Of a DNA stretch of 64,000 bases, positions 12,902 to 56,222 are shown in pieces. Position 1 is the first letter of the stretch, and every line of letters begins with the position of its first letter. The position numbers and the translations under genes are program-made. The stretch lies in the NCBI GenBank assembly GCA_012295275.1, contig CM022674.1, positions 7,688,001 through 7,752,000 on the forward strand. The letters are read 5' to 3'. Below the pieces are notes generated by a model that saw nothing but the letters and a program-made list of their open reading frames with translations, had not been told where the DNA came from and did not search any database. The DNA is from Chrysomallon squamiferum. Taxonomy: Eukaryota; Animalia; Mollusca.

Positions 12902-14608
12902 ATTTAAATAATCTAACAAGCCTAATGGACCGTTTTTATTTTATACTTTTTTCTAACATTCAGTTATTTTTTCTTATTTCCGTTATTCACTTTATCTTCA
13001 GATTTTCAATTACGCCTTTATAAGAAATGCCCCTAACAAATTAAACTGACATTTGAATTCATTCTAGTTTTAAACATAGAGTAAATTATCGTTACATTTG
13101 TAGGTCGGGAATTCGCCCATTTCTGAAAAAAGTGGCAGACAGCGCCACTAACGGCCGTCAGCTTTGCTACTTCACCGCGCCGTTTAGTTTTGTACTGATG
13201 AAATCAAACACTACGAGTACTGTAGTTTTTCAGTCGCCTTTAGATTAGTTTTCTTCATAAAATACAACCTTCAAAATTAATAATAATAGTAATAAAATAT
13301 TGTAAATTGTGATTTTGTTTTACAGGATTCATTATAATTATTTCTATACTGTCTAATCAGTCACATTAGTCAAAGGATTACAGTACACTTTCAAATTTCT
13401 TTCTATTCACATAACTTGGCTGTGGTGGCTTAATTAAATAACATTAACCTATGATTTGTTGGCAGTTTTAATTTCTCAGCAGGTAAAAAATAAATAAATA
13501 AATAAATAAATAATAATAACAGTAATCACGATACCCATGAAATAACAACAAAACCACTGCAATGAACCCCACAACTTTAATTTTATTTGTATAATTATTT
13601 ATTATAATTCACAAACAATTACTAGAAGTGTTACAGCTGTCACAGTTAATTCTACATATGATCTCAACTATTGTTCAACCATAAGTAATATCACTACAAG
13701 TTATTAAGATTATATAATATTCCTATTAAAAATATATATGTATATAAAATATAGATAAAATTCTTATTGAAAGAAAAAGTAAATTAGCAACATTTTATTC
13801 TGAATAAGATTCAAGTCTAATAGCTTGGAGTAAAACTATACTCAAATCCTATTAAAACACTTTTATTAAAAAATAAATAAAGATCCACTTACACTGAAGC
13901 TGTTAAAGTAAATGCTTTAAATAAGATCACACAGAAAAACCACTATTAAAAGCAACACCTCATTATGAAGTCATTCCTATAAACAAATGTAGAAATATTT
14001 TATGTTGATGTGGAGATGTCCAGAACATCATCTGTTTTCTACAATATCCTTTTTTTAAATATCACCTTCATATATGTTTGTGTTCATCGACTGAATAAAG
14101 ATAAATATTTTTATAGTACATGCTCAAGTGTATCAAAGAGAAAACTATGAAAATTACAAAGCGTTTGATTGTTGTGATGTTCTAACTAAAAAATATAATG
14201 TTCTGTCTTTCTACAAAGTACATGTCAGAAATTTCGTCATACAAATAATTCTGAATTACAGTGTAATTAGTTTTAGAAAATATAATTTTTGAAATATTAC
14301 TTTAAGTGAAAAACTTCAATAACTGGTTGAAAGTTTCTCTTGTTCCTGTTTAAAACAACAGATTTAAAATATAAATGATTACTACTACACCAGTTGTATA
14401 TTGTCTTAATAAAATTAATTTTCATCACTGTTAACTTTAAATATCATACTGATATTGATTTTGTATCATCTTTCATCTTAGTAATCTATTTTATTAATGT
14501 CTTTAATGAAATGTAAGTTAACAACACCTTATATTTACACTATTTTCATCACATTATTATAAACAAGAGTTCAACCAGATATGTTGTGTCTATCTGTCAT
14601 TTTGATTA

Positions 14609-17215
14609 CTAGTTTTGATGATACTCTATTAAGTATTCTGCATAGCACTGGGCATTGTCAAAAATTACAAATATCTTAGGTTGGTATGTGTTATCGACGA
14701 CACAGTCATAGAGTTCATCTGGCTTTGACTCGTCAACTGGTGGTGGTTTTTTCATTCCTCGTTCACCTTTCGTATATTTTCCAACAAGTACTCTCACATT
14801 GAACATAAACCTAGGAAAATATAATCATAGCCATTGCAGTTTTTTTTTATTTGTAAAAAAAACAACAACCCCAAAACCCAAAACAACAACAACAAGATGG
14901 TAGATAGATATATAGACAGAAATTCAGTAATTAGGGTAGGCTGAAAAGTAAATGGCTATGAAGGAGTAATGCTAGAACAGTGAAACTACTCAGAGAAACT
15001 GGGATACCTGACTGAAAAAACACCAGGTTGATCACACTATGAGAGAATTTGGACTGTTTTGAAACAAATCTGCAAATTTCATGGCTCACTTAGAGCCAGA
15101 GGCAAAGAAATAATCAATGCAATTATCATTCTCACTTCCTCCAAAGAAGGCCAGGGTTGTTTCATTAGTGAGGAAGGTGATGGTGTGGTTTTTTTTTTGA
15201 AATACAAAAGTATAGTGTTTATAGACTATCTTCAAACTGGCCAAACAGTAAATGGGAGTGTTCTTTGCTAACTTGTTGAGGCAGTTGTATGAGTCTATCA
15301 AGAACAAACGTACAGGAAAACTTTCAAGTCTGTGGTTACATGGCTAGTATGCACATTTGGCTTTGAACTGACTGATAATTTTCCAAACTCTCCTGATTTG
15401 GCAGTATCTGATTATCATCTAATTCCAAAACTGAAACAAAAACATTTGGCTGGCAAACCATAATGGAACTGTAATGTTGAGTACTTATGTACTAAATACT
15501 GCAGCACTGCTGAAAGAAGTGTATGGTCTGTAAGCAGTCTGTGTTGAATAAAAACTATATATCATCATATTCCACAAGGGCATCGTGTTAGGCTATGAAC
15601 TTTTCAACCTGTTCTGTTCTATAACGATTGCTTTTTTCAGTTTTCTTTTTTTGTTAAATTGATAAAACATTTCTATTCAAAGATGACCCTCATTTTTATT
15701 TCTACAAAACGAAAAACAAAATTTAAAATTTATCCGTTAGCTTCTTTTATCAATTCAACTTTTATAAATAATGCTTTGATGAAACTATGCCATTATTAAT
15801 TATTTGAAAATAAATCAACATTCTAAATATGATAAAGTAAAATTTATTACAATTAACTTTTAAAAGTCTATTTGTAAATATAATATGATTACATGCAAAC
15901 ATAAATTTATTTATTTTGAGTTGGGTGTTTTTTCTTTGGTCATGTTGATTCTAATGAAACTTTAAAAATTTGTGTTACCTGTTTCCTTCTTCATTTGGTT
16001 CTGTGTAGCCATCAGATGTTTTGGATTCTGAAGCAAAGTAGGCACCATCACCATACAATGCTCGCTTTACCACTCTAAAGTCAATACCTTGATTTACAAT
16101 GCGATCAACAATGTCTGCTTTGGTACCATGGAACAGTTGTTGCTCATTTGCACCATCTAGGCCATAATTTCGGTCCATGATTTGTTTTTTCCTGAAATTT
16201 GAATAATTTGTATAATTATTTATTATAATTCACAAACAATTATTAGAAGTGTTACAACTGTCACAGTTAATTCTACATATGATCTCAACTATTGTTCAAC
16301 ATAACAAGAACTTCTCACTAAAATCCTTGTTACAAATTTCTTAGGACATCAGTATGACATGGTTCATATGCAGCATGGAAATCCTGGAAGTATAATATGG
16401 AATTTCAAAATTAATTTGACAAATTCTGGTAAATTCTTTAAATTTTAGTTTTGTTACCGAATGTTCTAATTTTACTCATCCTGTGATTAAATTTTATTTT
16501 CCTCTCTAATGTTATGATAGTTAAGTTTTTATTTTAATCAGCTGCACTTTTTGATTCAACGATGCTATCAAAGCACATATCTCTGAACATGTGGTTTTCT
16601 TATTTCCCCACTTAAATTACAGACTAGTATGAATGATGTGATGTGATAATGTGATACGGTGGATGCAGTCTGCTCATGAAGGTATATGACAGGGAGTGTA
16701 AAATGAATTTACTTTAGTATGATGATGAGATATAACATTAGATGTGCTAAATAGAAAGCTAAATTTCCTCCAACTGCATTTAATGTGTCAAATCAGACAA
16801 AGACATTTTTACAACAAAATCTGCTGTCAGTTTTAGGAAAACATCACTGATCTGAAGTCACAGATTTTCTTTTATTAAAAGCTAAATCATTAATTACATT
16901 TTTTTTCTCAAATCTTAAAATATGTCATATTCAAACACTTATATAAAATGTAAGAAAATTAGGTTCAGAATACTGAATACATACAAAGCAAAAGGTTCCC
17001 ATCTGTCAAGATTCTGAATTCTGTGTATTGCTATGACAGATTTTGTAGGGAGCGTCCTCTTGAAATCATTAGAAACTTTCTGATATTCTTCAGATGTCAA
17101 GGGGTCTTTATAACTCAGAGAGATTTTCTGGACCTTGACACCTTGTTGCATGGACTGCCAGTACGAGGGTGAATCAATGGCTGTTTTTGATTTAGTTCTA
17201 ACATTTTGAGCAGCT
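14609..17215 (-). other. PARP catalytic domain exons (17-19) of the MIB-PARP gene, H-Y-I triad
   Basis: Translation PSYWQSM...EEYQKVSNDF...IHRIQNLDRW...NEQQLFHGTK...YGDGAYFASESKTSDGY...MFNVRVLVGKYTKG...PP...LYDCVVDN...PKIFVIFDNAQCYAEYLIEY has the signature order of PARP7/11/12/14/15 domains. Confidence 0.9.
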
Positions 17216-20200
17216 CTGAAAGTAGAAGTCATTTTAGAAATATTACTTAGTTATAAACTTTTAACAATTCTGTATCTGAACATGAGTTTTAACTCATAAA
17301 TTTAAATAACTCAAGTGCAGTCATCAATATAACTAAGATAATGTTTTAATATTCAGCATAGAGCAGTCTAAAGGAGGAAGTGACTGCATTTCATGTGGCT
17401 AGCTAAAGTGTTTAGTATAGAATATTGCAACTGCATTTATTTACTGTGTTAAAAAAAAACAACTTGGAAAAGAGAAATTCATAATTCTGCTTATAAAGAA
17501 ATCCTAGCATTTACCTCATCAGTACCCTGGCTAATTCTTTGTTTTGTATCAGGTCTATGGTTGTATTGCCATCTTTGTTTTTTATTGTGAGATTTGCTCC
17601 TTGATCAGCCAGCATGTAAAGAATATCAATAGATGTATCATCTTTTTCTGTTATCTCATTCCCATCCTGGATAAAAGTGTCCTGAAATGAACAACACAAC
17701 ATCAGACAACAACATATAAATTTATTATTGTTTTAATGATGTTACTGTTTCAATGTTATCATAGGTGCTACAAATACATGGTCTATTAAAATTCTTTATA
17801 CATCCAAGTAATTATTTTATTATCATCATTCAAAAATTTTGCGATAGTAAAAGTAACTAATAATATTACAAGACATTTATAATATTTACACTCACTAACT
17901 TAAGCTGATACTGTAGTTTTATGACGTTAGTAGAAACTTTAACACAAGCAGATCCATCTCTACATGATGACATCACAAATTTTAAATAATGCATAATATA
18001 CTTCAACATAAAACTTTTATCAAATTAATATTTTTCTTTCCTAAATAACTTACTAGCAATTTTAAGGAAGGTTTTTTAAGAACCAAATGTGATGGTGTAT
18101 TTCCATTGATATCCTGAGTATTTACATCTGCATCTATCAAAACATAAGAGCAAAATTATAGTACATTTTCACACCCCCTACCCCAGACACATACTAACAC
18201 AGACTATGACACAGATGTGGACACTTACATATACACATACAGATGCAAACAGACCCATCCACTGACATATTGACACACAGACACATGAACTAAACAAACA
18301 CACACACTGAAAAATATCCTAAGAAATAAGCAATAGGTAAGCAGAAAAAATAATTTTAACATAATCTCACTTGTGAAAAGAAGAACGTCAACAATAGGCA
18401 AAGATTTCCTGATCATAGCCAGGTGAAGAGGTGTCTGGTGACTGTTATCCTTAACATTTACATCAGCTTTTCCCTAAAATACAATGTTAAATCCTTATGA
18501 GAAGCAGCATCAAAAGTTAAATATAGGCAGTGATAGGTCTAGAATAAGATAAAGATTTAACTTTCTGAGAAAATAAAAATGTTATATGTTTCCTAATGGA
18601 GATATGAATAATTAATGAAAAATAAATCCATCTTGATGTTCCTACTGGAGATATGCATGAATTAAGTAATGAAAATAAATCCATCTTGATGTTCTTACTA
18701 GATATAAATAATGTAATGAAAATAAATCCATCTTGATGTTCTTACTAGATATAAATAATGTAATGAAAATAAATCCATCTTGATGTTCTTACTAGATATA
18801 AATAATGTAATGAAAATAAATCCATCTTGATGTTCCTACTGGATATAAAAATAGTATAATAGAAGACCAATCATTCATTGTGCTCCTACTAGATATAAAT
18901 AATGTAATAGCAATTCATCACTTATCTCTTAATGAAAATGAATACCTTACTAAGAAGACAGCTGACAAGAGACCTGTATCCATTGATAACTGCAATGTGC
19001 AGTGCAGTGTATCCTCCTTTCTTTGTCTTTAGGTTGACAACTGATGGCTGATTTTTAAATATCAGTTCAGCTAACCTGAAATTAAAAGAAAAATATTTTT
19101 TATCACTTACTTTATATGTGCACAAACATTTTCAAATAATTATCAACAATATAAGGAAAAACCAAGTTTTTTTTTTTTTTTCACTATCCACACTTTCAGA
19201 AATCGATAGAGAGCATTAATTTGAAAATAATGAGATTATAAAAAGTGTTATTTACTAGATATGAAACAATTGTTAACAATATAGTCTAGCACTGTTTGAA
19301 TGTATTGACAATAAGTAGTCATTTGAGTCTACAAATCAGTGAGTGAGTGAATGATATCCCAGGTCGTAAAACAATTTAGCTATTGTGTCAGACAGAGGTA
19401 TAAAAATGATTTATATATAAAATTAAATGGTAAAACTGTATAAAAATATACTGTCTCATGTGGTGCTTAAAATAATTACCCTTTATGTTAACATGTCTTT
19501 ATTGGAAAAATAAAAAAATAAACATCTTTGTATCACTATGCCAATTAAAGGATGTTCCAGCTTCAGGTGTTGTAAACTTGGAGGCACAAAAAAAATGTGT
19601 CAGTTAAATAAGATATTGGGATGAAGCCTTTTTTCATTAGTTCCAGGGCTTTAAAGTCTGCCCAAACTTCAAGAGTAATAAACATACTGAATCAAGCAAT
19701 CTCATGGAAATGTCAATGTCTGACTGAAAAAACACTGCACATCACAGAATTCCCATCCAGGTGATTCATCTGAATTGATAGAAATTCAGTCACAGTATCT
19801 TCCTCAAATGTCTACTAAAAGTTGCTGATATATAGATGCATCTGAACAATGTTTTTTTTTTTTTTTTTTTTCAAATGCCCCAAATCTAGCACAGTCTTTG
19901 GTGGTTAAAATAAATAATATAATATGTCAGAGAAATCAGTTCTGGCAACAGATTAAATACTGCATGATAAAAAATCCAAAAATAGGTATGGCACTTGGCC
20001 TCACATCAAATATATATTTATTATCAGAAACTGCATTTCAAGTAGGATGTTTTGGTAATGATTTTATCTTCATACTATATAGCAGAAACAGTCAGTCTGC
20101 AAACATTTGGATGAGGATGCCTTTTTTTTAAAATCAGTTCCAGGGCTTTAAAACTATCTACAGGTACAAGCTCTCTCCAATACAAAGTCTGAACACTCCA

Positions 20201-20223
20201 GAAACAAAGTCTAAGATCTTGGC

Positions 20224-20254
<31 letters not shown>

Positions 20255-23147
20255 GTAACAGTTATGGCATTTATTCAATGAATCCATAATCCAATTTAGA
20301 CCTTACAAAAGATCAACAAAGTAGGAGCATATATTACTGCCTGTAACTTTTCAGGGTCTTTAAGATATTTTTAACATATTTTTGATGGAGTACCAAGGAC
20401 AACCTTTCCACCACAGGATTTGGATTTTTATCCAGAAATAGTTGTGGATTTAAATGTAGATCTCTTTTATGGCAGATATACATACAATTTCTCTGAGTCT
20501 TTGAAAACTAAAACCATTATCTGATGCCCATTGCTGAAGTTTATTCATGCAAAGCTGCAGCTGACACTGGATGATATTAATTTGGATGATCTCTTGCAAA
20601 TCAGAAAGAACAATCAATACCAAGTTTTAAACCCTGAGTGATGCTGTTAATTTTCACTGAAAATATAGTTTTTGATTATCCTGAAGTACACCCATCTCTT
20701 GCAAATTTGAAAATGTAGATGTCATCCAAGATTTGTAAAAATCTTTTTTAAAAAGTTATCTATAACAATAGGAGGGTGACCTCTTAGAATGAAGCTATGG
20801 AAGTCCTTCATAATACCATTCTTCCTCATTATATCATAAGCTTTCTCCAAATCAAAACACACTGAAACTAGGTGTTGATTGTGTATGAATATTTCCCTAC
20901 AAAATATTTCAAATCCAACAAGTTGATCAATCGAGTTACATCTGGTCATGAACCCATGCTGCATTTAAGTAATAAAGAAACCAGACAAATCTGCAACTGA
21001 TAATTCATTTCATTGTTTTACAGATGCAGTTTGTCAAGGAAACAGGGTAATAATTAGCAGGACTTGATGGATTCTTAACAGCCTTTGGAGCAGGAATGAC
21101 TATAACTGTCCTCCAATCAGAAGGAAAGTCACCAGAAATCCAGATTTCATTAAAATATTTAGAAGAGCTGGGTAAACATGTAAGTAATTAGTAGTATGGA
21201 CACTACCAGAAGGGTTGGGACTAATTTTCATGGAGAAATCAAGAAAAAGAGACAAATTACAAAGGGTCTGATCTATGAAAGTGACTGTACCATTTACAGA
21301 GTGAAAATATGTATGGCTGTTATCATTAAAAAGAATCAAGTCTTTTTAGAGAATTAAATCTTCCAATTATTTACCTCTGTTTTTCACCTTCTTCATATTC
21401 CTACAAGGTGTGATGATGCCTGAAATCTCCCATTAGAATAAAAAGGGACAGGAGTTGGCCTACAAGATCTTGAAGGTCCTTAAGATTAAAACTGAAATGT
21501 TTCGGAGGAGGTAAATAAACTGAACACATAGTTTTATGACTGCAGCCAATAAGTTTAGTATTTTATGCAACTTTACTCTGGGAAATATTTTCATTAACAA
21601 GAAAGAAAACTTTCTTGGAAACTCTGTTTTTGATTTCCTTGAATTTGTGACTAATAATATTAGTGTCTTTGGGGGAAGTTTTCTGAAAACATATTTAACA
21701 ACTAATTCATCAAAAGTGGGTCAAATCCAGGGAGCCTGATGAGCCTCTTGAAAGATTCTTAGAATCCTGAGAGATCTGTACTGATTTAGAATAAACTGTC
21801 TTTACTTTAGCATTCCATTTCTTTGTTTTCTGAATGTCAGAAATCTTTTTAAATTTATCCTCATCATTTGACCATGTTACGTTAGTCTAATAGCAGCAGC
21901 ATATGACAAGTCCTACTAATTATGAAGATTAATCAACATTTTTCTAGCCTCAGGGAATTACAGATAAGTAGTACCATCTTTGTTCCTAGTAAAATTAAAC
22001 AAATCAATAGCTGTTAGCTGCATGAACTCTGGACCAAAGTGAAGAATTGTCAGTGGCAATGTACTTAGTTGCAGACATCAATCATGACTCAACCACCAGG
22101 ATCCCATCATCCACTTCACATGTCACATCTCACAACAAACAAGGTGCCTCATTCGAGGAGGTGGTGCAGTTACTGGTCATTTTAAGAATGTTCTCGTTTT
22201 CAATTTTATTTCTAAGAAATCATTGTACAACTTTACATTTATGTATTTTCAGGTAGTGGTTACATCATACAAAATATAAACCTAGGATTACATGAAAGAC
22301 AATGATATAATAAAAATAAAAGCAAAGAGTGTTCACATACTCAAAATGTTCTTCAGGTACAGCCAGTATGTGATAACCAGACTATAATGGGTTTGTTTCA
22401 GGAACAATTAATATTCTAATTAGCTAAGTTGTTTAAAATTTGTTTCATGATGATACTTTATAGCGATCATCTTAATGATATGTGACTACAAAGTTTAAAA
22501 TAATAATAATAATAATAATAATAAAATCTTTAAAAAATTCTGATAAAGGCAACTGACTGACTTGACAGCTGAAAGCCATACATACTTTTCTTTATTATTC
22601 ATTACAGCCACATGAAAAGCAGACATCCCCTCACTGTTGAAAATGTCACATCTAATTTTCTTCACCTTCATCAACATCTCACAAATTGGGTAGTTATCCA
22701 TAGCATCATGGAGTGGAGTGTCTCCATCATTGTCCTTTTGTCAGAACAAACTCAATGTTTACATAATATAAGAGATCATGTTTTCAAAAATAATTATATA
22801 AAATTATATGATTAAGAAATAATTTTATAAATCACAATAAATTGACAATTAATAGATGCAATACAAAGTTAAAACTTTATTATAAAGCTACAAGAATAAA
22901 TGTATCAATGCAAAATTTGCAAACAGGAATAATAATTAGAAAAGGGCATTTTTTGAATTAGGTGGGTTTTTGGGTTGTTTTTTTCTATAACATAATTAGA
23001 ATCAAGGCTCAAAATTAAATAAATATATATTTAAATGTATTTTGTGAACTTCAGTTGAAAATACATGAATAAGGTACTGAGGAAAAATATACTGTGCCAT
23101 TGTATTAAAAATTAATCTCTCTCTCTCTCTATATGTGTGTGTGTGCC

Positions 23148-23181
<34 letters not shown>

Positions 23182-23790
23182 TACACATGCATATACACCT
23201 TTGAATAAATAAAAAGAAAATATGTGACATGTTAATAAAAAATGAATACATATATAACCTGTGTGTTAACATCACATCCCTTGTCAGTGAGGATTTTCAC
23301 AATTTCTTTATTGTTTGCAGTCACTGCTTGGTGACATGGTGTCAGTCCTTTTTTATTCTTTTTGTTCATGTCAGCACCTTTATCAATTAGGATTTTCACA
23401 ATTTCATCTTTGCCTCTGAAAAACATAATAATCATGAAATGACACAATGTTTATCTGTGTTACATAAAAGTATAATTACAGCATTAAAGAGAATAGCGAT
23501 GCAATAATTTAAAGATACACATTTAACTTACAGTGAAACCACATGATGAAGTGATATGTTATACAAATGTTATATATTTAACATACTGTTAAACAGCATG
23601 ATGAAATGATCTGGTGTATAAAAATCTAGATATAAATTGTAAAATAGTATGATGAAGTGATCTTATATAAAGAAAGAGATTTAACTTACTGTGAAATGTT
23701 AAAAAAAATACCAATCTAACTATGAAGCAGCCAGTTGAAATATGTTGTATAAAGATACAGATACATCATAAAAAAACAGCATGATGATAC

Positions 23791-23831
<41 letters not shown>

Positions 23832-26800
23832 CATCTTAATAAAACAGCATGATGAAATGAAATGATATTAAATAAAGATATAGATTTAATTTACTATGAA
23901 ATAGCATGATTAAGTGATCACATATAAAGAAAGAAATTTAACTTAGTGTGAAATAATGTTAAATAAATACTCATCTTACTATATAGCAGCTAAATGAAAT
24001 GATATGTTGTATAAAGATTTAACTTCCTCTGAAGTGATGTTATGTAAAGTTTAACTTACTGAGAAACAGCAAAATGAAGAGCAGTGTCTCCTTCTTCGTC
24101 AACCAGATTTGGATCAGCTTTATACGATAAGAGAATTTTCACAACTTCACTGCTACCTGTGTAGCAAGCCAGTTGTAATGGACTGTTTCCATCAACAGTC
24201 TCATTCACCTGCATATATGTATACACCTTTTCTTAATAAAACCTTTCATTATGGAATAAAAATATTTTATTTCTGATCATCATTTCTCTTATTATATATA
24301 TTTAAAATTTTGTGCATTACAAAATGCCCCAAATATGTAGTCTGAAAACAAATAAAAAGAAAAATAAAGAAAAAGAAAAATCCCTCAGTAATCTTAGTTT
24401 GATGGTTAATGTCAGTTACTCTGAACTGGTTTAACTGTTGTGTTTAAAACTGTACATAGTTATAGAGTCAACACACTGATTAAAACCTCTTCAATATACA
24501 TGTCACAAAATTTGATTTAAACCTAATTTGAGATAACTTTGAATTTATCATGTGCAATCTAGCAGAGACTGAAATATCTTTAACTGATGAAATATGAATA
24601 ATAAAAAAATAAAAAAAATTGTAATTTGTTACCAAGGTGGAACTGACCAGCTCATATACTTTATATTTCATATGAAAATATCTTTGAATGTGGTACAAAA
24701 ATACACATTTTTGCAATAGTATTATGGAAAAAATGCTATGACATTAGAACTATGATGTTGCTTTTAGGATTATGAAAATAATCTGATCAAAAAAGGATTA
24801 TTGGAAACAATATAATCAAACTAGGACAATGGAGAAAAATCCTGTCAAACTAGGAATTAGTTTACGATGTTAGCAAACAAGGATTTGGAAAAAGATGTTA
24901 TCAAACAATAACTATGGAAAAGATCAATGGTAGGGGGAAAAAATAGAATTATGGAAAAGATCTTACCAAACCAGGATTATTGGAAAGAATTTCTTTGACA
25001 GTTTTGATGTCTTCCTGTGCTGCTGCTTCTATAAGTCGTTCAGATAAACTGATTTTATCTCCCTTCTGTATCAGTGACAAAATCATTTCACTAATGTTAC
25101 TCCCTATGTCTGAAAATGCTAAAAAAAAAATATCATTCGTATGAAAACTTTTATTTTTTATTATTTTATTTTTTTAAATTTATCTTTCCAATTCATTTTC
25201 AAAAAATGAATAGATGTTAGGTATAGTACATTTATTTATTTACAGCAATATACTTTTATTTTGAATAAACTTATTTTAAAATAAATAAATTTTAATTTGT
25301 TTGTGTTGTTTATCATCTAATTTATCATTCCAATTGATTGTTAAAAAAGGATGAATTTAGAGTATTGATTATTTATTTATTAGCAGCAATTTGTTGTTGT
25401 TTTTTTGTTGTTGTTGTTCATTCTGTTTGTTGTTTATCTGTTTTATTGACAACATAGAAATGAACATTATCTTAATATATAACTTTGCTATAAGTTACAG
25501 AATAATGATCAGTACACTGAGATAGGAATTCGTCTAATTCTTTGTACATCAAAACCTACTAAGAACTTCATCTCAAGAAGTACCAGTACATCATAATTAT
25601 AGAAAGTTGGTGTTTGCAGACTGATAAAAACTTTATTAGATGTTTTTTGTTAACAGTCTATATATGACATCCCATGATATTTTCAGCAAAACTGTTTGAC
25701 ATCAGATGAAATTGACTGTAATTTTAATTCATATCTCTTGAACAGCTCTGTTTTAAAGTGAATAATACAATTGAATAGTTACTTACCACCAGGAATTATT
25801 TCCATTGGTGTCTCTGATACCTGGTGTTTTGATCTATTCTCATCAGCTGACTCTACATACTGACAACACACAGGACTAAACATCCACTGCTGTTCTCCTA
25901 CTTTGACTGTCAGGTCACCATCATCATCAACAGCTACAATGATTCCTAACTCACCAAGAGCCTGGCATCAAATCCACATTAATAATTATGTTAAGTAAGA
26001 GAAAGTAACTCATACAAACTAGCTAGGTTATACATGATCTATTTGACGTCATTTTGTGATTGTGTTACATGATGTTTGAATTTTCAGAAACGAAATATAA
26101 ACAATTTAAAAATAATTTTAATTCCATTCACTGAGAAAATTAGAAACTTTACATCGCAGAAAGAAATAAAATACTGGGATAAAAAATGAAATCAATTATA
26201 CTAGTCATAATAATGAACTAATTGACTAATCAAATTTCAAATAATATCAAAATGAACTTAGTGCTGCTCACTGGAGTTTACAAAACAATCTGAAATGAAA
26301 TCAAGATAAAAATAAATTTATACTTTTTCCATTTCATCATTCCAGCCACCATGTCCTTCCTGCAGCTCCTGAACAGCATTGATGTTTTCCAGAATTTGAA
26401 CAGTCTCACCAACAGAAAATGAGTGAATCTGAAAAAAGTGAAAACAGTAGATGTGAAACACATAAATATTTCTTAATTCATAGTAAAGAAAAAAAAAGAA
26501 AACATAAATTATATTAAAAATATATATAGAATATTTAGATACATATAGATATTTCTTTACTTTAAAATACATAGAAAATAAATGACCCAAATAAATACTT
26601 CTGAAAAATAAACAGAACAGCATAAAATGGAATTTCGTTAAAAAATAAATAAAACAACATAATAAATATTACAAATATATCATTTTAAATTAAAAATAAA
26701 GAAAAGACCAATTAAAAATGAAGAAAAAACATTAAAGCAATACTTTTCAAAATTAAATTACATAAAGACTATAGAAATATTTCTTTAATTATATCTAAAG

Positions 26801-27005
26801 AACCCAAGATAAAACAAATGTACAATTTAAATTAAAATTAAATAAATAACAGATTACCTTAGTTAATACTGATCTATAGAAATACCATGTTTGTGCATCT
26901 TCATACTGAACTTTTGCTATACTTGAGTTTTCTATTTCAATGATTGTTCCTAACTGTGACAAATACTTGAAAAAAAAAAAATAATAATAATTATAAAAAC
27001 TAAAA

Positions 27006-27065
<60 letters not shown>

Positions 27066-29000
27066 TAAGGACAATAGTGTTGCTCTGATATTAAGATATC
27101 CTCTAGTCACTACTGACCGCAGAAGAAAGATATTTGCATAATTTTATTTTATAAACACAAACACACACACACACACACACACCACATTTATTTTCATTTG
27201 GTAATTATTGTGAATAAATAAACATTTATGTTATAATTAATTAAAGTAAATAAATACAAACATCAGATATCTTTTCATGCCACATTCCTTTAGTTTCTGA
27301 AAAAATTTTCTTCACCACTTTGGCATCTATATCCACTTGTACCTTGTCTCCAGGTTTCAGCTGATATTCTGACTGGCTTCTCACATCTAAACCAATAAAC
27401 TACATTGGTTAATATTTTATCTTCATCATTATCGTCCTCATCATAATCTCATCATGTGGATCATCATTATTACTATTATTATTTAATATTATTATCTGTG
27501 ATAATTTAATCAAAGTAAAAAAAAAAGATATTAAAATGAAAGTCAAAAACTATTATGAGCTTCTGTGGTACATCTATAGTGCTTCTTTTAAAATTAACTA
27601 AAATTATTAAAACTTAGTATGAGTAACAGGTTTATACAGATTAAAAAACATTGTTTTTAATTAGTTTGTTAATTTATCGTTTTGATATTATTTGTTAGTA
27701 TAGTTGTTATGTATTTGCTGGTAGTTTAAGAAACACACCTAACACAGGAAGATGCTGTGGAAAGTAATACATGCTTTGTGTTTCAGCAATCAGAATGAGA
27801 TCCATACAACCTTCTCCTCCACATCTGTAGTTATTCATTGAACCTTTTTGCCACTTAACTTCAACACCACCTCTATAACTATTTCTTCCCCACTTTACTA
27901 AACGTATGACTTCACCAGCTTCTTTACTGCCACCTAAATTTTAAGACAAAATAAAAGGAAAATTTCTTTGAAAAGATGCAAAATTCAGATTTCATAATTT
28001 TCAAAACAGAAAAAGATATTTGTTAAAGGAATTTAAATGAAATGAGTATAATTAATTACCTTTATGATTACAAAATAGTGTGATGCTTATTGTCACAATT
28101 ATTGTAGGGGAAAGTTAATCTCACTTCAACTGTTATTTTTGTTGATATCTCACCATTCAGTCTATGTCATATCATATCACCTGTCATACTACATAATAAC
28201 AGGTGACACAAAAATTAGTTGTCCATTTTGATCCATGATTATATTACTGAGTGAGCTCAATATTTATGAGGATTTTAATATCTCAGGTGAGTGGCAGCAC
28301 ACAGAATCTAAACCTTGTATGAATATTTTCTTTCTACAATTTCAATGAAATGTTTTCCACTTTTATTTGTAATATTTGTCAGATTATTTCTTTTTGTATT
28401 ATATATTAATGAAAATATAAAATTTCAGTAGGTATCACATTAATAAATATAGAGGAACATATCATTAATTTCATCAGGTAGTTCCTCAAATAAAACATCA
28501 AATAATTGATAAATAATAACACACAAAGATTATAAAAATCAGTCTTATGATTAGTATAAAATTACTAAACTTCTTGGTGTTAATTCTTCTAATTGTAAAA
28601 TTTTAAAAGAAAAAACTCCATTTTTGACCATAAATGTATTTTAACATAGTAAGAAGTACACTACTGACCTCATTATGAACTCTTTACTGCGAAAATACTT
28701 ACCATCCTGATTACTCCACTTCCAGTGTAACCCTCTCTTAACACTAGCACCTGGTAAAATTCCATGCACAGTTTCTGGTTTTAGCAAATTTCTTGAATCT
28801 ATAGGCACTCTAAAAATTATATTAACAGAAATGAATATGTCCTGTTTCAAACGTGACTATTATATATATTTTAATAAAAATATTGGAAGTAAATAATATT
28901 ATTAAGCAATAATACATACCTTTTTGAAATCGTTTGAGAAGATAAATTAGTATTAAATTCAGCAAAAATAAATGTGCAAAACTCTTAATAGTAAAAGGTA

Positions 29001-29047
<47 letters not shown>

Positions 29048-31591
29048 TTTTTTTTTTTTTTTTTTTTTTTTTAATGTAATCTCAGGTTTGCTAACTTACA
29101 GTGTAGATTGCTGTGTTTGATGGAGAAGGAAAGGATGACTAAGATCATGTTTTCCACTCATGTAACACAGAGTGCAAAGGTCGAAGTCACTGCAGGTAGC
29201 ACAATTCCATCGCATACCTTCTATTGGATCCTTTTTGCAAATATCACATGCAATACCGTCATGAACACAACCTAAAAGTTACATAATACTGTTTTTGTGA
29301 GTTAATGATGATGATGATGAGGAAATAATCATTACTTTCTAAATATGGTAAAATGTTATATATCAATAACAATGGAAGACATACAAAAACTAGTTACACT
29401 AAAAAGGTCTGAAAAATGGACGCAAAATAATTTAATTTGGAAGTTTAAAAATTTCCGAGAGCTCACAGAAAATTCAGATCGAAATTAATATGGCTGCGTC
29501 GAACGCCGATTAGTGTTTACAAGCGTTTAAATACGTATGCCTTCATAATACAATCAATTTTACATAATAATTTGGGGAAATATGTCATTTAATCAATGCC
29601 TCGCATACATAGATGTCTATTATTGAGTAGAAATTTTCTGCAAAGGTCGAAACCTTTTGTTGTTGTTGTTGTTTTTTTTGGTAACTTTGACGTGATACCA
29701 TCTCATACTCGTTTCGTTTACGACGTCGCCAGCCAAAATTAAAAAAAAAAAAATAATGATAAAATAATAATAAAATAATATAAAATAAATAATTTTCACA
29801 GACCCTGGCGCGTGAATATGAAGATAACTATTCTCATTAGGTACCATAATGTGGACACGTTACTTTGCTAAAACTCCATACCAGACACCTCTCAGTACGA
29901 AGTTGTAAAACGATACTTCAAACCATTATATTCTTTTTTATATATATTTATTTCCTTTTTCAATGCATTAGAGGTCGTATTTACCTGTAAAAAGCAAACT
30001 GATCACGTTTTATCTGAATGATTGCCTTGATACATTCAGTATAAGGCTTGAATCAGTTTTAAAACAGAACATTTTTTTTTTAAAAATTGAAGGTCCGTCA
30101 ACCGGCCTTATAAAATGTTTAGTCTTTTTCGTTAAAACAAAAAGCATTCAACTTCTAAAACATGTACTATTATGTATGCAAACAATAAGTTTCCTATTTT
30201 TATTTTTAAAAAATCATTGGTCCATGCTACTTAGATTATCATTATGGTTATTTATGACTTCAAATTAATAATTTATTAGCGAGAAAACAAAATTACTCCA
30301 AGATTGTTTACCTCTGTAGAAAATAAAATGACATTTTTGCTTTGGTTTTCTTTAATATTCTTGATTCACTTTTTTAGAGATAATTTGATTTTGGTTCAGA
30401 ACGGACGCTGGTGACAGACGACATCTATCTGTAGAAGGGACATAACTGATGTTGTATTTCCGCATGATATTCATGCTTTAGAGATTTATAAATAAATAAA
30501 TAAATAAAATAAAATAATCATTATCTTGTGATATACATATGAATTTATTACTACTACTATTTTATTTTTATTTTCAAAACATTCGAAAGATTCAAAGAAA
30601 AACCTGTAATTCTGTTTATTTTAGAAACGATTTCGTACTTAATTTTGAGATTAACACGAACGACATCTACAGAAGGGACGTAACTAATACTTTATTTTTC
30701 GTAGTATTTTAGAGGTTGAGAATTTATTATTTGTCGGAGCCCTCGTCGAATAACTAACTACATCTTGTTATTTAAAGATTTCTGAGAATAAAATTTAGCT
30801 TGTTCACTGAACTTGACGCAAACAAAACAGTGGTGTTCTATTAATAGTGTGATGTAAGGGGAATAACTGTAATAAAGCGAATGATTTGTACATGTCAGAG
30901 TATGAGAAAAGAGGGCTAATAAATCCATCGAAGTCTTACATGCGTTCGCGACATCTATGCTGCTGCATAATTGTGTAGCTACATAAAAGTGCTCCAGAAC
31001 AACAAGAATATTTCCTTAAACCCTTGTATTAATTCTTTCAGAATAAAACCATTTCGAGTTTCAGTACAGTGCACAACGTACTGACAATAAACAACTGACG
31101 TATTATGATAACTAATTTATGAAAATTTTTCTTAGAAGAAAGAAATAATGAACGTATCGATATAGATATCATTTGTTAATATTTTTCGAATCTTACCTAT
31201 TTAAAGAGAGTTTGTTGGGTTTTCGTTTATTTATTTATTTAGTTAGTGGGTTAGTTTTCATGATCTAAATCACGGAGTAATAATTACTCTGCTAGCTCAA
31301 CAGCAACAACAACAACAACGAAAAACTAATATAATATTAGGTGTAAAAAATCTGATAGATTTTTTTTCTTTTTCTAAATAGTTTACCTGTCGGTGCGTTA
31401 TCATATATTTTGAGTTCGTGTCGTCCATCATATCCAGCACGATAATGACCTTCGTGACCTATATCCCATATGACCTTCACCTTGCCATTAGCGACATCCT
31501 CTTTCACAACAGTGCCAAGACAACCTTCGCCACCATCTTTCCCTTCACCAGCCCAGTCTGGACCTCGAACTACACGTGTTCCTACCGACAT
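14609..31591 (-). CDS. Mind bomb (MIB2)-like MZM-REP-ankyrin protein fused to a C-terminal PARP (mono-ADP-ribosyltransferase) catalytic domain, ~971 aa, 19 coding exons
   Basis: GT-AG exons with matching phases: 31591-31387, 29271-29100, 28809-28703, 27933-27739, 27386-27262, 26965-26858, 26428-26324, 25961-25787, 25109-24967, 24208-24060, 23415-23259, 22734-22586, 19075-18946, 18473-18371, 18133-18054, 17681-17515, 17215-16985, 16191-15979, 14810-14609; total 2916 nt ending TAG. Motifs: MIB/HERC2 (VGTRVVRGPDW..DGGEG..GTV; GASVKRGLHWKWSNQDGG), ZZ (CDIC..IEGMRWNCATCSDFDLCTLCY..KHDLSH), REP (LKPGDKV; FSVGETV..LQEGHGGWNDEM), ankyrin (GDTALHFA, GLTPCHQA, GDTPLHDA, GYTALHIA, QTPLHLA), PARP (LFHGT, YGDGAYFA, KIFVIFDNAQCYAEYLIEY). 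Confidence 0.85.
14931..15615 (+). mobile_element. Degenerate mariner transposon in intron 18
   Basis: Remnants ..SIVFIDYLQTGQTVNG..LLRQL and SPDLAVSDYHLIPKLK (cf. YSPDLAPSD); imperfect inverted ends GGCTGAAAAGT / ACTTTTCAACC. Confidence 0.75.
18610..18910. repeat. 47-bp intronic tandem repeat
   Basis: Unit AATGAAAATAAATCCATCTTGATGTTCTTACTAGATATAAATAATGT, ~5-6 copies. Confidence 0.85.
19337..21950 (-). mobile_element. Degenerate I/Nimb-like LINE (endonuclease-RT-RNase H remnants) in intron 12
   Basis: RT motif QHGF...DQLV...HLVSVCFDLEKAYD (20722-20964), endonuclease LFNDNSHTYFH...FIDQTLC (21100-21339), RNase H-like remnant near 20100-20170, (CACT)n 3' tail at ~19337-19350; many stops. 5' boundary approximate. 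Confidence 0.8.
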
Positions 31592-35908: not shown

Positions 35909-36319
35909 GGCAGCACACAGAATCTAAACCTTGTATGAATATTTTCTTTCTACAATTTCAATGAAATGTTTTTCCACTTTTATTTGTAATATTTGTCAGA
36001 TTATTTCTTTTTGTATTATATATTAATGAAAATATAAAATTTCAGTAGGTATCACATTAATAAATATAGAGGAACATATCATTAATTTCATCAGGTAGTT
36101 CCTCAAATAAAACATCAAATAATTGATAAATAATAACACACAAAGATTATAAAAATCAGTCTTATGATTAGTATAAAATTACTAAACTTCTTGGTGTTAA
36201 TTCTTCTAATTGTAAAATTTTAAAAGAAAAAACTCCATTTTTGACCATAAATGTATTTTAACATAGTAAGAAGTACACTACTGACCTCATTATGAACTCT
36301 TTACTGCGAAAATACTTAC

Positions 36320-39200
36320 CATCCTGATTACTCCACTTCCAGTGTAACCCTCTCTTAACACTAGCACCTGGTAAAATTCCATGCACAGTTTCTGGTTTTA
36401 GCAAATTTCTTGAATCTATAGGCACTCTAAAAATTATATTAACAGAAATGAATATGTCCTGTTTCAAACGTGACTATTATATATATTTTAATAAAAATAT
36501 TGGAAGTAAATAATATTATTAAGCAATAATACATACCTTTTTGAAATCGTTTGAGAAGATAAATTAGTATTAAATTCAGCAAAAATAAATGTGCAAAACT
36601 CTTAATAGTAAAAGGTATTTTTATTATTATTATTATTATTATTATACGGTATTTTTTTTTTTTTTTTTTTTTTTTAATGTAATCTCAGGTTTGCTAACTT
36701 ACAGTGTAGATTGCTGTGTTTGATGGAGAAGGAAAGGATGACTAAGATCATGTTTTCCACTCATGTAACACAGAGTGCAAAGGTCGAAGTCACTGCAGGT
36801 AGCACAATTCCATCGCATACCTTCTATTGGATCCTTTTTGCAAATATCACATGCAATACCGTCATGAACACAACCTAAAAGTTACATAATACTGTTTTTG
36901 TGAGTTAATGATGATGATGATGAGGAAATAATCATTACTTTCTAAATATGGTAAAATGTTATATATCAATAACAATGGAAGACATACAAAAACTAGTTAC
37001 ACTAAAAAGGTCTGAAAAATGGACGCAAAATAATTTAATTTGGAAGTTTAAAAATTTCCGAGAGCTCACAGAAAATTCAGATCGAAATTAATATGGCTGC
37101 GTCGAACGCCGATTAGTGTTTACAAGCGTTTAAATACGTATGCCTTCATAATACAATCAATTTTACATAATAATTTGGGGAAATATGTCATTTAATCAAT
37201 GCCTCGCATACATAGATGTCTATTATTGAGTAGAAATTTTCTGCAAAGGTCGAAACCTTTTGTTGTTGTTGTTTTTTTTTTTTGGTAACTTTGACGTGAT
37301 ACCATCTCATACTCGTTTCGTTTACGACGTCGCCAGCCAAAATTAAAAAAAAAAAAATAATGATAAAATAATAATAAAATAATATAAAATAAATAATTTT
37401 CACAGACCCTGGCGCGTGAATATGAAGATAACTATTCTCATTAGGTATCCATAATGTGGACACGTTACTTTGCTAAAACTCCATACCAGACACCTCTCAG
37501 TACGAAGTTGTAAAACGATACTTCAAACCATTATATTCTTTTTTATATATATTTATTTCCTTTTTCAATGCATTAGAGGTCGTATTTACCTGTAAAAAGC
37601 AAACTGATCACGTTTTATCTGAATGATTGCCTTGATACATTCAGTATAAGGCTTGAATCAGTTTTACAACAGAACATTTTTTTTTAAAAATTGAAGGTCC
37701 GTCAACCGGCCTTATAAAATGTTTAGTCTTTTTCGTTAAAACAAAAAGCATTCAACTTCTAAAACATGTACTATTATGTATGCAAACAATAAGTTTCCTA
37801 TTTTTATTTTTAAAAAATCATTGGTCCATGCTACTTAGATTATCATTATGGTTATTTATGACTTCAAATTAATAATTTATTAGCGAGAAAACAAAATTAC
37901 TCCAAGATTGTTTACCTCTGTAGAAAATAAAATGACATTTTTGCTTTGGTTTTCTTTAATATTCTTGATTCACTTTTTTAGAGATAATTTGATTTTGGTT
38001 CAGAACGGACGCTGGTGACAGACGACATCTATCTGTAGAAGGGACATAACTGATGTTGTATTTCCGCATGATATTCATGCTTTAGAGATTTATAAATAAA
38101 TAAATAAATAAAATAAAATAATCATTATCTTGTGATATACATATGAATTTATTACTACTACTATTTTATTTTTATTTTCAAAACATTCGAAAGATTCAAA
38201 GAAAACCTGTAATTCTGTTTATTTTAGAAACGATTTCGTACTTAATTTTGAGATTAACACGAACGACATCTACAGAAGGGACGTAACTAATACTTTATTT
38301 TTCGTAGTATTTTAGAGGTTGAGAATTTATTATTTGTCGGAGCCCTCGTCGAACCCACTAACTAACTACATCTTGTTATTTAAAGATTTCTGAGAATAAA
38401 ATTTAGCTTGTTCACTGAACTTGACGCAAAACAAAACAGTGGTGTTCTATTAATAGTGTGATGTAAGGGGAATAACTGTAATAAAGCGAATGATTTGTAC
38501 ATGTCAGAGTATGAGAAAAGAGGGCTAATAAATCCATCGAAGTCTTACATGCGTTCGCGACATCTATGCTGCTGCATAATTGTGTAGCTACATAAAAGTG
38601 CTCCAGAACAACAAGAATATTTCCTTAAACCCTTGTATTAATTCTTTCAGAATAAAACCATTTCGAGTTTCAGTACAGTGCACAACGTACTGACAATAAA
38701 CAACTGACGTATTATGATAACTAATTTATGAAAATTTTTCTTAGAAGAAAGAAATAATGAACGTATCGATATAGATATCATTTGTTAATATTTTTCGAAT
38801 CTTACCTATTTAAAGAGAGTTTGTTGGGTTTTCGTTTATTTATTTATTTAGTTAGTGGGTTAGTTTTCATGATCTAAATCACGGAGTAATAATTACTCTG
38901 CTAGCTCAACAGCAACAACAACAACAACGAAAAACTAATATAATATTAGGTGTAAAAAATCTGATAGATTTTTTTTCTTTTTCTAAATAGTTTACCTGTC
39001 GGTGCGTTATCATATATTTTGAGTTCGTGTCGTCCATCATATCCAGCACGATAATGACCTTCGTGACCTATATCCCATATGACCTTCACCTTGCCATTAG
39101 CGACATCCTCTTTCACAACAGTGCCAAGACAACCTTCGCCACCATCTTTCCCTTCACCAGCCCAGTCTGGACCTCGAACTACACGTGTTCCTACCGACAT
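36320..39200 (-). other. Second copy of MIB-PARP exons 1-3 inside the gap-adjacent duplicate
   Basis: Exons 39200-38996, 36874-36703 and 36426-36320 match exons 1-3; the copy is cut off by the N gap. Confidence 0.8.
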
Positions 39201-39387
39201 CACTCTAAGTCTCTTTCAAAAAGAATTAAATGGAATAATTTTGCAGTGAAAATATTTATCTGTATGTCTGCCTATCTATCTATCTGTCTATTTATCTATA
39301 TATATATATCTGTCTATCTATCTGTCTGTATATCTATCTGTACTATTATCCATCTGACTGTCTGCCTGCAGGTCTGTCTATATGTCC

Positions 39388-39432
<45 letters not shown>

Positions 39433-40671
39433 GCTATCTAGCTATATGTCTGTCAATCTATACGTCTGTCTGTCTGTCTATATTTCTATTTATTTGTCTG
39501 TCTATATTTCTATTTATGTATCTGTCTATATTTCTATTTATTTGTCTGTCTCTCTGTCTATCTACACAGAGTTGTACGTTTCTCTAGCAGACTCTGAGAT
39601 GAGCGGTCATCTACGATGTACGGACAGTTTTCCAGGGCCCATTTCTTTTCACTGGATATGTCCCTTAGATCAGCGGTCACCTACAGAACGCGATTTTGGA
39701 AAGCATTTTTAAAATTATAATTCAACTGCTAAATGTATTTGGATTTTTTTCTCCAATATTAATAATTTTATTGTTGTACGGCAGTTTTATACTATATTTT
39801 CTGCGCTGCACAATGCATTCTGGAATTGTCACTTCTGTCGAATACAAGAATCTGCGAAATGCAGTCGCTTGGCTGTTAAACCGCGCGAATTCACCCCATT
39901 TGGTACACAACTTTGATGATGTTTAGCGGTCTTTGGGGTCGATAAAATGGTGCGGCTGGCACGATTTGGAGCTCTGTCTCGATTTCAAATTCAATATTTT
40001 GCTAAAACATAAATATAATTTATGCTTATTATGACTGTTATGAACTGCAAAAGTACGATTTATTTACATTTGTCAGTGAACTCGATATGTTTGTTTTAGA
40101 GTTTAGCAGAAAGCTCTGGCGCTTGATGTAATTCTCGGCCACGGTTTATGTTTGTTATGGGTTCTGGTGTGGTGGATGTGAACAACGATAGTAAATAGGT
40201 TATTATGGAAAATAATAAAATTGCCTGTTATTTTTGTCCCTCTGATGAGGAGACACCTGCGTTGTAGGGACACTTTTGCTTGGCTCCACAGGTGTCCTTA
40301 CAAGACAGGTTCCATTCTGTGTGTGTGTGTGGCTCGCTCAGTTGAATGCAATTAATAAACATATTTTTACTACTACTGATAACTGATAAAAATGATAATA
40401 TTTATAAAAGGGTTATTATTCATCATTACACATTTCTTAATTTGCTAAGCAAGTCATCCTTATTATAAATATTTCCAATACCTTTGCAGATTTATATATA
40501 AACGTTTACACATATACCGTAATTAATTTTGAAAACAAAACCAAAGCTAAAAACGAAGACAAAAACGAAAAAAAAAAAAAATATATATATATTTAAATAA
40601 ATACAAAATATAACCGTCTAAAGGTTTTAATAATTTTTGCAAGTATTATGATGATGATGATGATAATAACG

Positions 40672-40727
<56 letters not shown>

Positions 40728-42321: not shown

Positions 42322-42446
42322 ATGTGAGAAGCCAGTCAGAATATCAGCTGAAACCTGGAGACAAGGTACGAGTGGATATAGATGCCAAAATAGTGAAGAA
42401 AATTTTGTCAGAAACTAAAGGAATGTGGCATGAAAAGATATCTGAT
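42322..42446 (+). pseudogene. Orphan exon-5 copy in the duplicated block
   Basis: Same sequence as 34709-34833. Confidence 0.7.
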
Positions 42447-42613
42447 GTTTATTTACTTTAATTAATTATAATATAAAAACATTTTATAATCACAATAATA
42501 ACCAAATAAAAATAAATGTGTGCGTGTTTATAAAATAAAATTATGCAAGTACCTCTCTTCTGCAGTCAGTAGTGACTGAAGGATATCTTAATATCAGAGC
42601 AACACTATTGTCA

Positions 42614-42650
<37 letters not shown>

Positions 42651-43039
42651 CATATTTATTTATATATATTTTATTTTTTATATGGTGTCTGAATAATAGG
42701 AAGCTTCTATCAACCAATTAATAATGCTGAGACATAGACAGTCGGTGACAGCCCGATTTTTATATCTGAAGCAGTCATTGGCTGTAATAGATTCCTTTCC
42801 CTAGTGAGAGCCAGACGTTTACAGGACTGAGAAAAATGTTCCATGTTTCTCCTAAACTTGGCAGAACATATGATTAATTCTAACAAGCTCAGTTTGAATT
42901 AGTGTCTTGAAATGAGAGACTGGTGAATGATAAAATAGAAAGAAAATTAGAAATAAATAAATAGACGAAACGATAAATAAGCTTGAAATGAACCAATTAA
43001 TAAAAAAGAAGGAACAAAATAATGATAATAATAATAATG

Positions 43040-43078
<39 letters not shown>

Positions 43079-56186: not shown

Positions 56187-56222
<36 letters not shown>

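Follow-up and report, generated by a model that had tools for sequence, protein, structure and literature searches.

A gene that joins a Mind bomb scaffold to a PARP catalytic domain (MIB-PARP) was identified in Chrysomallon squamiferum, within the 64 kb stretch of contig CM022674.1 analysed here (the window). The gene represents an undescribed, conserved molluscan PARP subfamily, likely a writer of mono-ADP-ribose in immunity. The sequence-only reading knew of no described protein of this kind, and no description of the architecture was found in the literature searched, from which subscription papers were excluded. A term look-up in PMC2964712, PMC9334734 and PMC8195603 gave no mention of Mind bomb, and the passages of PMC8102003 contained no such fusion. 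The architecture amounts to a natural swap, in which the recognition platform stays the same and the chemistry used to modify proteins is a different one, and both gastropods and bivalves have retained it. MIB-PARP probably acts as a target-guided mono-ADP-ribosyltransferase on the Mind bomb scaffold, probably in molluscan innate antiviral signalling. In this mechanism the MZM-REP region is predicted to hold short motifs of target proteins, the PARP domain is predicted to attach single ADP-ribose units to them, and the fast-changing recognition half would probably bind targets other than those of canonical MIB2. The substrate choice of most mono-ADP-ribosyltransferases is poorly understood; targeting by MIB-PARP is directly testable because the protein contains a peptide-binding module of solved structure.

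The MIB-PARP gene occupies positions 14609..31591 of the minus strand, on which all features below lie unless stated, and runs from an ATG at 31591 to a TAG at 14611-14609. Splicing by coordinates yielded a coding sequence of 2925 nt in 19 exons with a sole, terminal stop. The 19 in-frame GT-AG exons first proposed were recovered (18/18 introns), and the product was corrected from ~971 to 974 aa. Exon 1 (31387..31591) encodes the first MIB/HERC2 domain (PF06701, E 2.6e-15) and exon 2 (29100..29271) a ZZ zinc finger with 8/8 Cys/His ligands intact (PF00569, E 1.2e-13). The second MIB/HERC2 domain, which completes the MZM, spans 27739..28809 in exons 3 (28809-28703) and 4 (27933-27739; PF06701, E 4e-4 and 4.2e-12). 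Two REP (Mind bomb SH3) repeats at 25787..27386 are encoded by exons 5 (27386-27262), 6 (26965-26858), 7 (26428-26324) and 8 (25961-25787), as indicated by PF18346 on exons 6-8 and by alignment to MIB2s. A linker and MIB-type ankyrin repeats follow at 17515..25118, in exons 9-12 (25118-24967, 24208-24060, 23415-23259, 22734-22586) and 13-16 (19075-18946, 18473-18371, 18133-18054, 17681-17515). The PARP catalytic domain (14609..17215), assigned by PF00644 and conservation, is carried by exons 17 (17215-16985), 18 (16191-15979) and 19 (14810-14609). The previously proposed order MIB/HERC2-ZZ-MIB/HERC2-REP-REP-ankyrin-PARP agreed with Pfam searches of the 19 exons singly, in which MIB_HERC2 matched exons 1, 3 and 4, ZZ exon 2, SH3_15 exons 6-8, ankyrin exons 10-14 and PARP exons 17 (weakly), 18 and 19; exons 15 and 16 gave no Pfam match, and exons 5 and 9 gave weak, unrelated matches only. 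NCBIfam returned ankyrin matches only, below cut-off. Two possible polyadenylation signals, ATTAAA at 14507 and AATAAA at 14495, lie within 14490..14507, about 110 nt beyond the stop; such motifs often arise by chance in AT-rich DNA. Two database proteins, P0001 and P0002, are collinear across the exons, P0001 being the closest homolog (56% identity over residues 1-911). MIB-PARP was thus confirmed as a real gene with an intact reading frame, under the splicing predicted for it.

The same architecture was found in snails, bivalves and one chiton, mostly labelled as a ubiquitin ligase. In the best 120 of the 978 matches of P0001, the top 38 all combined PF06701, PF18346, ankyrin repeats and PF00644, and none had the RING domain PF13920; of the other 82, 80 had PF13920 and none a PARP domain. 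The 25 named proteins among the 38 are all from molluscs and represent 19 species. Canonical RING-bearing MIB2 occurs alongside, in six related genera among the P0001 matches listed. NCBI names these fusions 'E3 ubiquitin ligase MIB2-like', and therefore the induced 'MIB2' of oyster, mussel and abalone immune transcriptomes may partly be an ADP-ribosyltransferase, with CGI_10020681 as one likely case.

The MZM, the two REP repeats and the ankyrin array are all present in the order and folds of MIB1/MIB2, and homology to these extends to residue ~760-780. P0001 matches the MIB1 structures 4xi6 (E 5e-84) and 8v0e (E 7e-51), and the predicted model of P0002 matches MIB1 MZM-REP (4xi7) and MIB1 ANK (8v0e). 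In MIB1, MZM-REP is a peptide-binding module according to passages of PMC11887331, and recruitment of substrates through this region of MIB-PARP would seem rather likely. A MIB recognition half is also joined to another writer, in that case a kinase, in 2/29 scanned representatives (P0312 of Diadema setosum and P0256), both single predicted models with a MIB-ANK-kinase arrangement. The plant KEG is another effector swap on a Mind bomb scaffold.

The recognition half has diverged from that of MIB2. Its domains are 33-56% identical to those of mollusc MIB2, and only 103/168 MZM-REP positions that are invariant in MIB2 (at least 95% across 33 canonical MIB2s) are kept, with 10/31 kept in REP1. 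Within the same six genera, the recognition halves are 34-56% identical among fusions versus 65-91% among MIB2s. Since sequence change in the recognition half far outpaces that in MIB2, canonical Mind bomb substrates, proposed initially, are doubtful. Rapid change can also mean relaxed constraint. An active enzyme might still bind such substrates (Notch ligand tails or proteins of the cFLIP/CYLD/RIPK1 type) and compete with or counter-mark MIB2, with a role in development or the control of cell death and not in antiviral defence. The modelled conservation of the MZM, REP and ANK folds, the nearly invariant ZZ ligands among the fusions, the coexistence with RING MIB2 and the dominant-negative effect of RING-less Mib in flies, as cited in bioRxiv 10.1101/2024.03.01.582834, are in keeping with this, but the lost invariant positions and the identity gap make it unlikely.

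The PARP catalytic fold is indicated by PF00644 and by the predicted model of the relative P0002, which superimposes on PARP15 with a TM by target of 0.90 and an rmsd of 2.2 A. The nearest solved domains are PARP12 for exon 18 and PARP15/14 for exon 19; the closest PDB matches of the ART domain were thus split between PARP12 and PARP15, and the ART tree included no named PARP7/11/12/13. MIB-PARP shares the H-Y-I pocket with PARP7/11/12/13 and PARP14/15 but differs from the mono-ART PARPs by its N-terminal Mind bomb recogniser and by lacking RNA-binding zinc fingers, macrodomains and, in gastropods and bivalves, WWE. The CCCH and tandem WWE that precede the ART domain in PARP12/ZAP/PARP7 are present in the chiton protein P0038 and absent from the window, where the chiton insert gave no tblastn match. 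Tankyrases follow a shared logic, described in PMC10789625: their ankyrin-bearing N-terminus binds peptides and so brings substrates to the PARP domain at the C-terminus. They differ in having ARC ankyrins, a SAM domain and a catalytic Glu; MIB-PARP has no SAM match, an Ile at the Glu position, ankyrins of the MIB type and the additional MZM-REP, and its PARP domain matches tankyrases more weakly than PARP12/14/15. MZM-REP could instead serve as a localiser only, with an active domain modifying mainly itself, nucleic acid or bystanders near the complex. A donor of the ZAP/PARP12 type, and the statement in parts of PMC10789625 that some antiviral PARPs may modify RNA, would suit this option, which is improbable given that MZM-REP binds peptides in MIB1 and that neither the gastropod nor the bivalve forms have an RNA-binding domain.

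The pocket residues proposed beforehand, an H-Y-I triad with a Ser and a Tyr, were located at H858 (16130), Y888 (16040), S896, Y899 and I954 (14674). In an alignment of 43 fusions, H-G-T, Y-F-A, S896 and Y899 are invariant (43/43), and the catalytic-Glu position 954 holds I in 37 and V in 5, is missing in one partial sequence and never holds E. I954 is aligned to the Leu of PARP15 'PKLFVVF', which we take to be the equivalent of Glu988. By sequence, Ile or Val at this position is the pattern of the mono-ADP-ribosyltransferases of the PARP7/10-15 group. Catalysis by MIB-PARP is very probable from the intact triad, which is in itself no proof of activity. PARP9 and PARP13, described as without activity in passages of PMC10789625, illustrate the alternative of a pseudo-enzyme or NAD/ADP-ribose-binding module in a scaffold or decoy, and the His-to-Tyr stretch is 3 residues shorter in the window protein, P0001, P0002 and P0003 than in the other 39 fusions; with His, Tyr, Ser and Tyr invariant in a domain that outside the pocket averages 47% identity, this alternative is improbable.

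MIB1 and MIB2 owe their E3 activity, and MIB1 its dimerisation, to a tail of RING and coiled-coil-RING; MIB-PARP has neither. The absence of a RING, claimed earlier, was borne out by a six-frame motif scan of the 64 kb and by tblastn of 8 RING-MIB2 tails, whose single match (E 0.28) lies inside intron 3. The RING motif was found in 0/43 fusion tails versus 33/33 canonical MIB2 tails, and no hidden RING or WWE exon was found in or after the gene. For MIB1, bioRxiv 10.1101/2024.03.01.582834 reports that joining MZM-REP to ccRING3 is sufficient; the recruiter is therefore portable, and the E3 activity resides in the part lost from MIB-PARP. The clean phase-2 junction described before stood as well: exon 16 ends at 17515, exon 17 begins at 17215, and the 299-bp intron between them (17216..17514), in phase 2 at R760, has no RING or WWE remnant. 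Its 18 AG sites allow an open in-frame join only from 17215 and 17245, of which 17215 is the one with a pyrimidine tract. Exon shuffling, as suggested earlier, would fit this intron. The aligned part of the old PARP-only oyster model P0143 begins at the same junction residue. In relatives, full-length fusion ORFs lie on transcript-sized contigs of 3.2-4.2 kb; 7 Logan members of the oyster cluster, 998 aa long, contain motifs of MIB as well as PARP, their contigs measuring 3167-3619 nt, and the whole fusion on ~3.2 kb therefore indicates that relatives produce a single spliced message. That a truncated MIB and an adjacent PARP gene were merged by gene prediction, as P0143 with its PARP part alone and the sequence-predicted splice of the gene might suggest, is hardly credible in view of the same order in 19 species, the transcript-sized contigs and an in-frame intron, with neither a stop nor a RING exon following exon 16.

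The proposed antiviral link of MIB-PARP received modest, indirect support from oyster data, and an immune role is somewhat favoured. In the supplements of PMC7064767, CGI_10020681 rose after poly(I:C) (log2FC +0.59 and +0.96), and the RING-bearing CGI_10024105 gave log2FC of -0.06, -0.11 and +0.10. The induction is small, at most ~2.2-fold, and the CGI identifiers were paired with fusions by length and domain content only, the 851-aa model ending early in the PARP domain. By the same supplements, the non-PARP, MIB2-named CGI_10026441 was also up (+0.47, +1.17), 4,577/28,027 genes changed in the experiment, and CGI_10020681 was also classed as 'sustained' in the seawater control. In a supplement of PMC6182001, CGI_10020681 is among the genes listed as antiviral, with a change of +0.39 at 12 h that was confined to the resistant family.

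The evolutionary history of the fusion may be depicted as follows. A duplicate of a MIB2-type gene, before the gastropod/bivalve split, is the likely starting point, and its RING tail would have given way to the 3′-terminal part of a gene of the PARP7/12/ZAP type. In the tree of the MIB half, the fusions of gastropods and bivalves group together as a single clade (99/97), and the fusion event is old because the two groups share it. In the PARP-half tree, 18 fusions fall on one side (99/97), opposite 21 other PARPs; as a test of the donor it is weak because the PARP-region search (24 proteins) gave no named PARP7/11/12/13. Chiton P0038 carries a CCCH-WWE-WWE module between ankyrins and PARP that matched the central domain of ZAP (7kzh, E 1.7e-17), and its MIB half stands apart: one origin with the other fusions was rejected on that half (AU p 0.00042), in a tree that left out 17/56 rows, had no MIB1 root and may be affected by long branches. 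A mixture model (21 rows) did not recover the grouping of the chiton with the other fusions and left the topology unchanged. More tentatively, the fusions could constitute an ancient virus-responsive class of mollusc PARPs, in which the Mind bomb substrate-recognition platform changed from writing ubiquitin to writing ADP-ribose and the fast-changing MZM-REP surface tracks viral or immune-adaptor targets, the chiton MIB-CCCH-WWE-WWE-PARP being a reader-writer form from an earlier or parallel ZAP-type fusion.

Two further copies were detected in the window. At 35909..43330 (minus strand), across a 200-N gap, lies a copy of 28293-35708 with second exons 1-3, 99.2% identical (12 substitutions and 21 gap events in 7442 columns), likely an assembly duplication. 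An inverted paralog of exons 1-10 on the plus strand (55130..63718) runs off the window and has frameshifts in exons 5, 8 and 9; it is likely a pseudogene. Positive selection was considered for this paralog and rejected, as a pN/pS of 0.73 (0.071/0.096) and the frameshifts fit decay.

The predicted MIB-PARP gene, whose exons were joined by coordinates, runs from 31591 to 14609 on the minus strand in 19 exons, and its 18 introns, all GT-AG, leave a single open frame of 974 aa. Pfam, run exon by exon, gave the domain order MIB_HERC2, ZZ, MIB_HERC2, SH3_15, ankyrin and PARP, which bears out the in-frame gene (about 971 aa) and domain order proposed in a sequence-only reading. The phase-2 splice claimed there between ankyrin and PARP, over the 299-bp intron of the exon 16/17 junction, held when the acceptors of that intron were surveyed: 2 of 18 AG sites give an in-frame open join, and one of these, acceptor 17215 of exon 17, has a pyrimidine tract. 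The absence of RING was likewise confirmed, as a motif scan of all six frames of the window found none and the tails of RING-bearing MIB2, the canonical Mind bomb ligase (n = 8), matched the window at best with E 0.28. The whole gene sits to the left of a 200-N gap at 35709-35908.

MIB-PARP is a real, conserved and misnamed molluscan family. The closest homolog, P0001 of the snail Gigantopelta aegis, was found via exon 18 as the sole longer protein among 22 candidates; it has the same domains as the window gene and is 56% identical to its protein, so that the window probably comes from a gastropod. In the architecture search suggested earlier, with P0001 as query (978 matches found), the top 38 of the 120 matches listed carried MIB_HERC2, SH3_15, ankyrin and PARP and in no case a RING family, whereas the remaining 82 contained RING in 80 and PARP in none. 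The named rows among the 38 fusions (n = 25) represent 19 mollusc species, made up of limpets, abalones, a periwinkle, mussels, oysters, scallops, a pearl oyster and one chiton; further searches also yielded fusions from Haliotis asinina, Potamilus and Solemya. The matches listed included no fusion from a cephalopod or a heterobranch, though RING MIB2s of Aplysia and Elysia appeared; such searches do not by themselves show absence. One Atlas cluster combined Ank, PARP and MIB_HERC2 (54 members, phylum known for 18, Mollusca commonest). The proteins are mostly named E3 ligases by NCBI, and some are called PARP by UniRef. A RING-bearing MIB2 alongside the fusion, as had been expected for the genome itself, was established from the P0001 matches for six related genera, Gigantopelta, Patella, Haliotis, Littorina, Pinctada and Mizuhopecten. 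In agreement with the earlier claim of novelty, no description of MIB-PARP was found in the literature searched, subscription journals being outside its coverage. The sole literature match for MIB_HERC2 with PARP was an unrelated paper on HECTD1.

Across 43 fusions, a set containing near-identical mussel sequences, H-G-T, Y-F-A, S896 and Y899 were invariant, and position 954 was Ile in 37, Val in 5, missing in one partial sequence and Glu in none; the H-Y-I triad and NAD-pocket Ser and Tyr read from the window were thereby upheld. Mono-ARTs are marked by loss of the catalytic Glu. The closest solved domain was PARP12 for exon 18, PARP15/14 for exon 19 and PARP12 for the chiton fusion. An AlphaFold model of the relative P0002 (mean pLDDT 79.6), whose low pTM of 0.41 does not fix the domain arrangement, matched PARP15 (TM by target 0.90, rmsd 2.2 Å) as well as the MZM-REP and ANK of MIB1. 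The His-to-Tyr stretch in the window's lineage is 3 residues shorter than in 39 other fusions. In ARTD enzymes NAD+ is held by His and Tyr, and most members of the PARP family can carry out mono-ADP-ribosylation only (PMC10789625). Judged by its sequence, MIB-PARP is a predicted ART of PARP7/10-15 type to which a new targeting module is joined. The missing RING excludes it from the Mind bomb E3 ligases, and it is not a tankyrase. Its working logic would be most like that of a tankyrase and its chemistry most like that of PARP12.

Two studies report that MZM and REP of MIB1 bind peptides of ligand tails (PMC11887331) and that MZM-REP tethered to ccRING3 suffices for MIB1 function (bioRxiv 10.1101/2024.03.01.582834). 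By analogy with these roles, the fusion would have kept the Mind bomb recruiter and dropped the E3 and dimerisation part. Per domain, identity across six genera was 34-56% for fusions against 65-91% for RING MIB2, a gap that may be inflated by paralogs among the fusions, and of 168 positions that are invariant across 33 canonical MIB2s the window protein retains 103 (ZZ 23/28, REP1 10/31). Because the recognition half has drifted in this way, it likelier binds different targets, and the Mind bomb-type substrates proposed at first are not favoured.

Separate trees were built for the two halves, as had been recommended. On the MIB half, gastropod and bivalve fusions formed one clade (99/97) adjoining fast RING-bearing MIB2-like proteins; the halves of the chiton form, P0038, disagreed. 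Its PARP domain grouped with the other fusions (99/97, outgroup weak), whereas its MIB half fell outside the fusion clade (AU p 0.00042; a second tree run gave the same placement). A single origin with long-branch error, two separate origins or a merged chiton gene model may each account for this. In P0038 the ankyrins and the PARP domain are separated by a CCCH-WWE-WWE insert that matches the ZAP central domain (E 1.7e-17), and this insert points to a putative PARP donor of PARP7/12/ZAP type. Effector swaps on the Mind bomb scaffold appear to recur, since 2 of 29 scanned MIB-bearing representatives, chosen from 150, had a kinase tail; these two, P0312 (Diadema setosum) and P0256, have a C-terminal protein kinase in place of RINGs on the MIB-REP-ANK scaffold. 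Six MIB2-like proteins (P0039, P0053, P0055, P0218, P0231 and P0239) have doubled MZM-REP modules, the RING match missing in some.

Among 15 listed members of an oyster cluster of 121, seven from Logan, on contigs of 3167-3619 nt, were each 998 aa long, and both halves were present in 14 of 14 full-length Logan/ENA members checked. A 3-kb ORF on contigs of this size implies that the oyster fusion is made as a spliced transcript. In an old oyster PARP-only model the aligned stretch starts at the residue matching the window's exon 16/17 junction, and a second old model ends at that matching the exon 17/18 boundary, which suggests that oyster and window fusions share introns.

Oyster gene models (CGI_ numbers) were matched to fusion proteins by length and domains. 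CGI_10020681 has ANK, ZZ, MIB and PARP signatures over 2556 nt (annotation table in PMC6971885), as long as the 851-aa model P0163, which is 99% identical to the full-length fusion P0162; CGI_10013263 is PARP only (699 nt, as P0143), and CGI_10006104 is named MIB2 with an ADP-ribosyltransferase term. With poly(I:C) against seawater, log2 changes in PMC7064767, whose time points were inferred from DEG counts, were +0.59, +0.96 and +0.21 for CGI_10020681 (p 9e-10, 5e-25 and 0.09), +0.45, +0.36 and +0.70 for CGI_10013263, +0.26, +0.60 and +0.34 for CGI_10006104, and -0.06, -0.11 and +0.10 for the RING-bearing CGI_10024105. CGI_10020681 also rose by log2 0.31 and 0.75 after herpesvirus challenge, and PMC6182001 has it on an antiviral list for resistant oysters. 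Weighing against an antiviral role are the small size of these effects, the change seen in 4,577 of 28,027 genes, the rise of a MIB2-named gene without PARP, the shift of two of the candidate genes in the seawater control too, and the matching of gene models by length and domains. We lean towards a full mechanism in which MZM-REP would grip targets and the PARP domain would add a single ADP-ribose, a guided mono-ADP-ribosyltransferase probably serving innate antiviral signalling in molluscs. CGI_10020677, CGI_10020678, CGI_10015482 and CGI_10015483 combine MIB/HERC2 with WWE and/or vWA domains; two of these models are numbered near CGI_10020681, a hint that MIB-ADP-ribose-reader fusions may form a broader group.

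Elsewhere in the window, an inverted paralog of exons 1-10 lies at 55130-63718 (plus strand), and its exons 5, 8 and 9 are frameshifted. Identity to the intact gene is 100% for exons 3 and 7 but 83-87% for exons 4, 6, 8 and 9, and gene conversion may explain this patchwork. A 7.4-kb tandem copy (28293-35708 and 35909-43330, 99.2% identity across the 200-N gap) is probably an assembly duplication. Isolated inverted copies of exon 5 are found at 34709-34833 and 42322-42446 (plus strand, 96.8% identical). A neighbouring gene of the XPG_N/PIN (asteroid/FAM120-like) kind has exons at 48504-51380 on the minus strand (Atlas score 0.95 for 50970-51359), and Pfam gave no match on them. The 3.5-kb intron 12 holds a decayed LINE-like element at 19600-22000 (minus strand; weak RVT_1 match, E 0.007, at 20725-20964). 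Near-identical local repeats (98-99%) pair 1-1193 with 46282-47114 and 53045-53683 with 54153-54790, and a tandem array of about 2 kb occupies 5181-7159.
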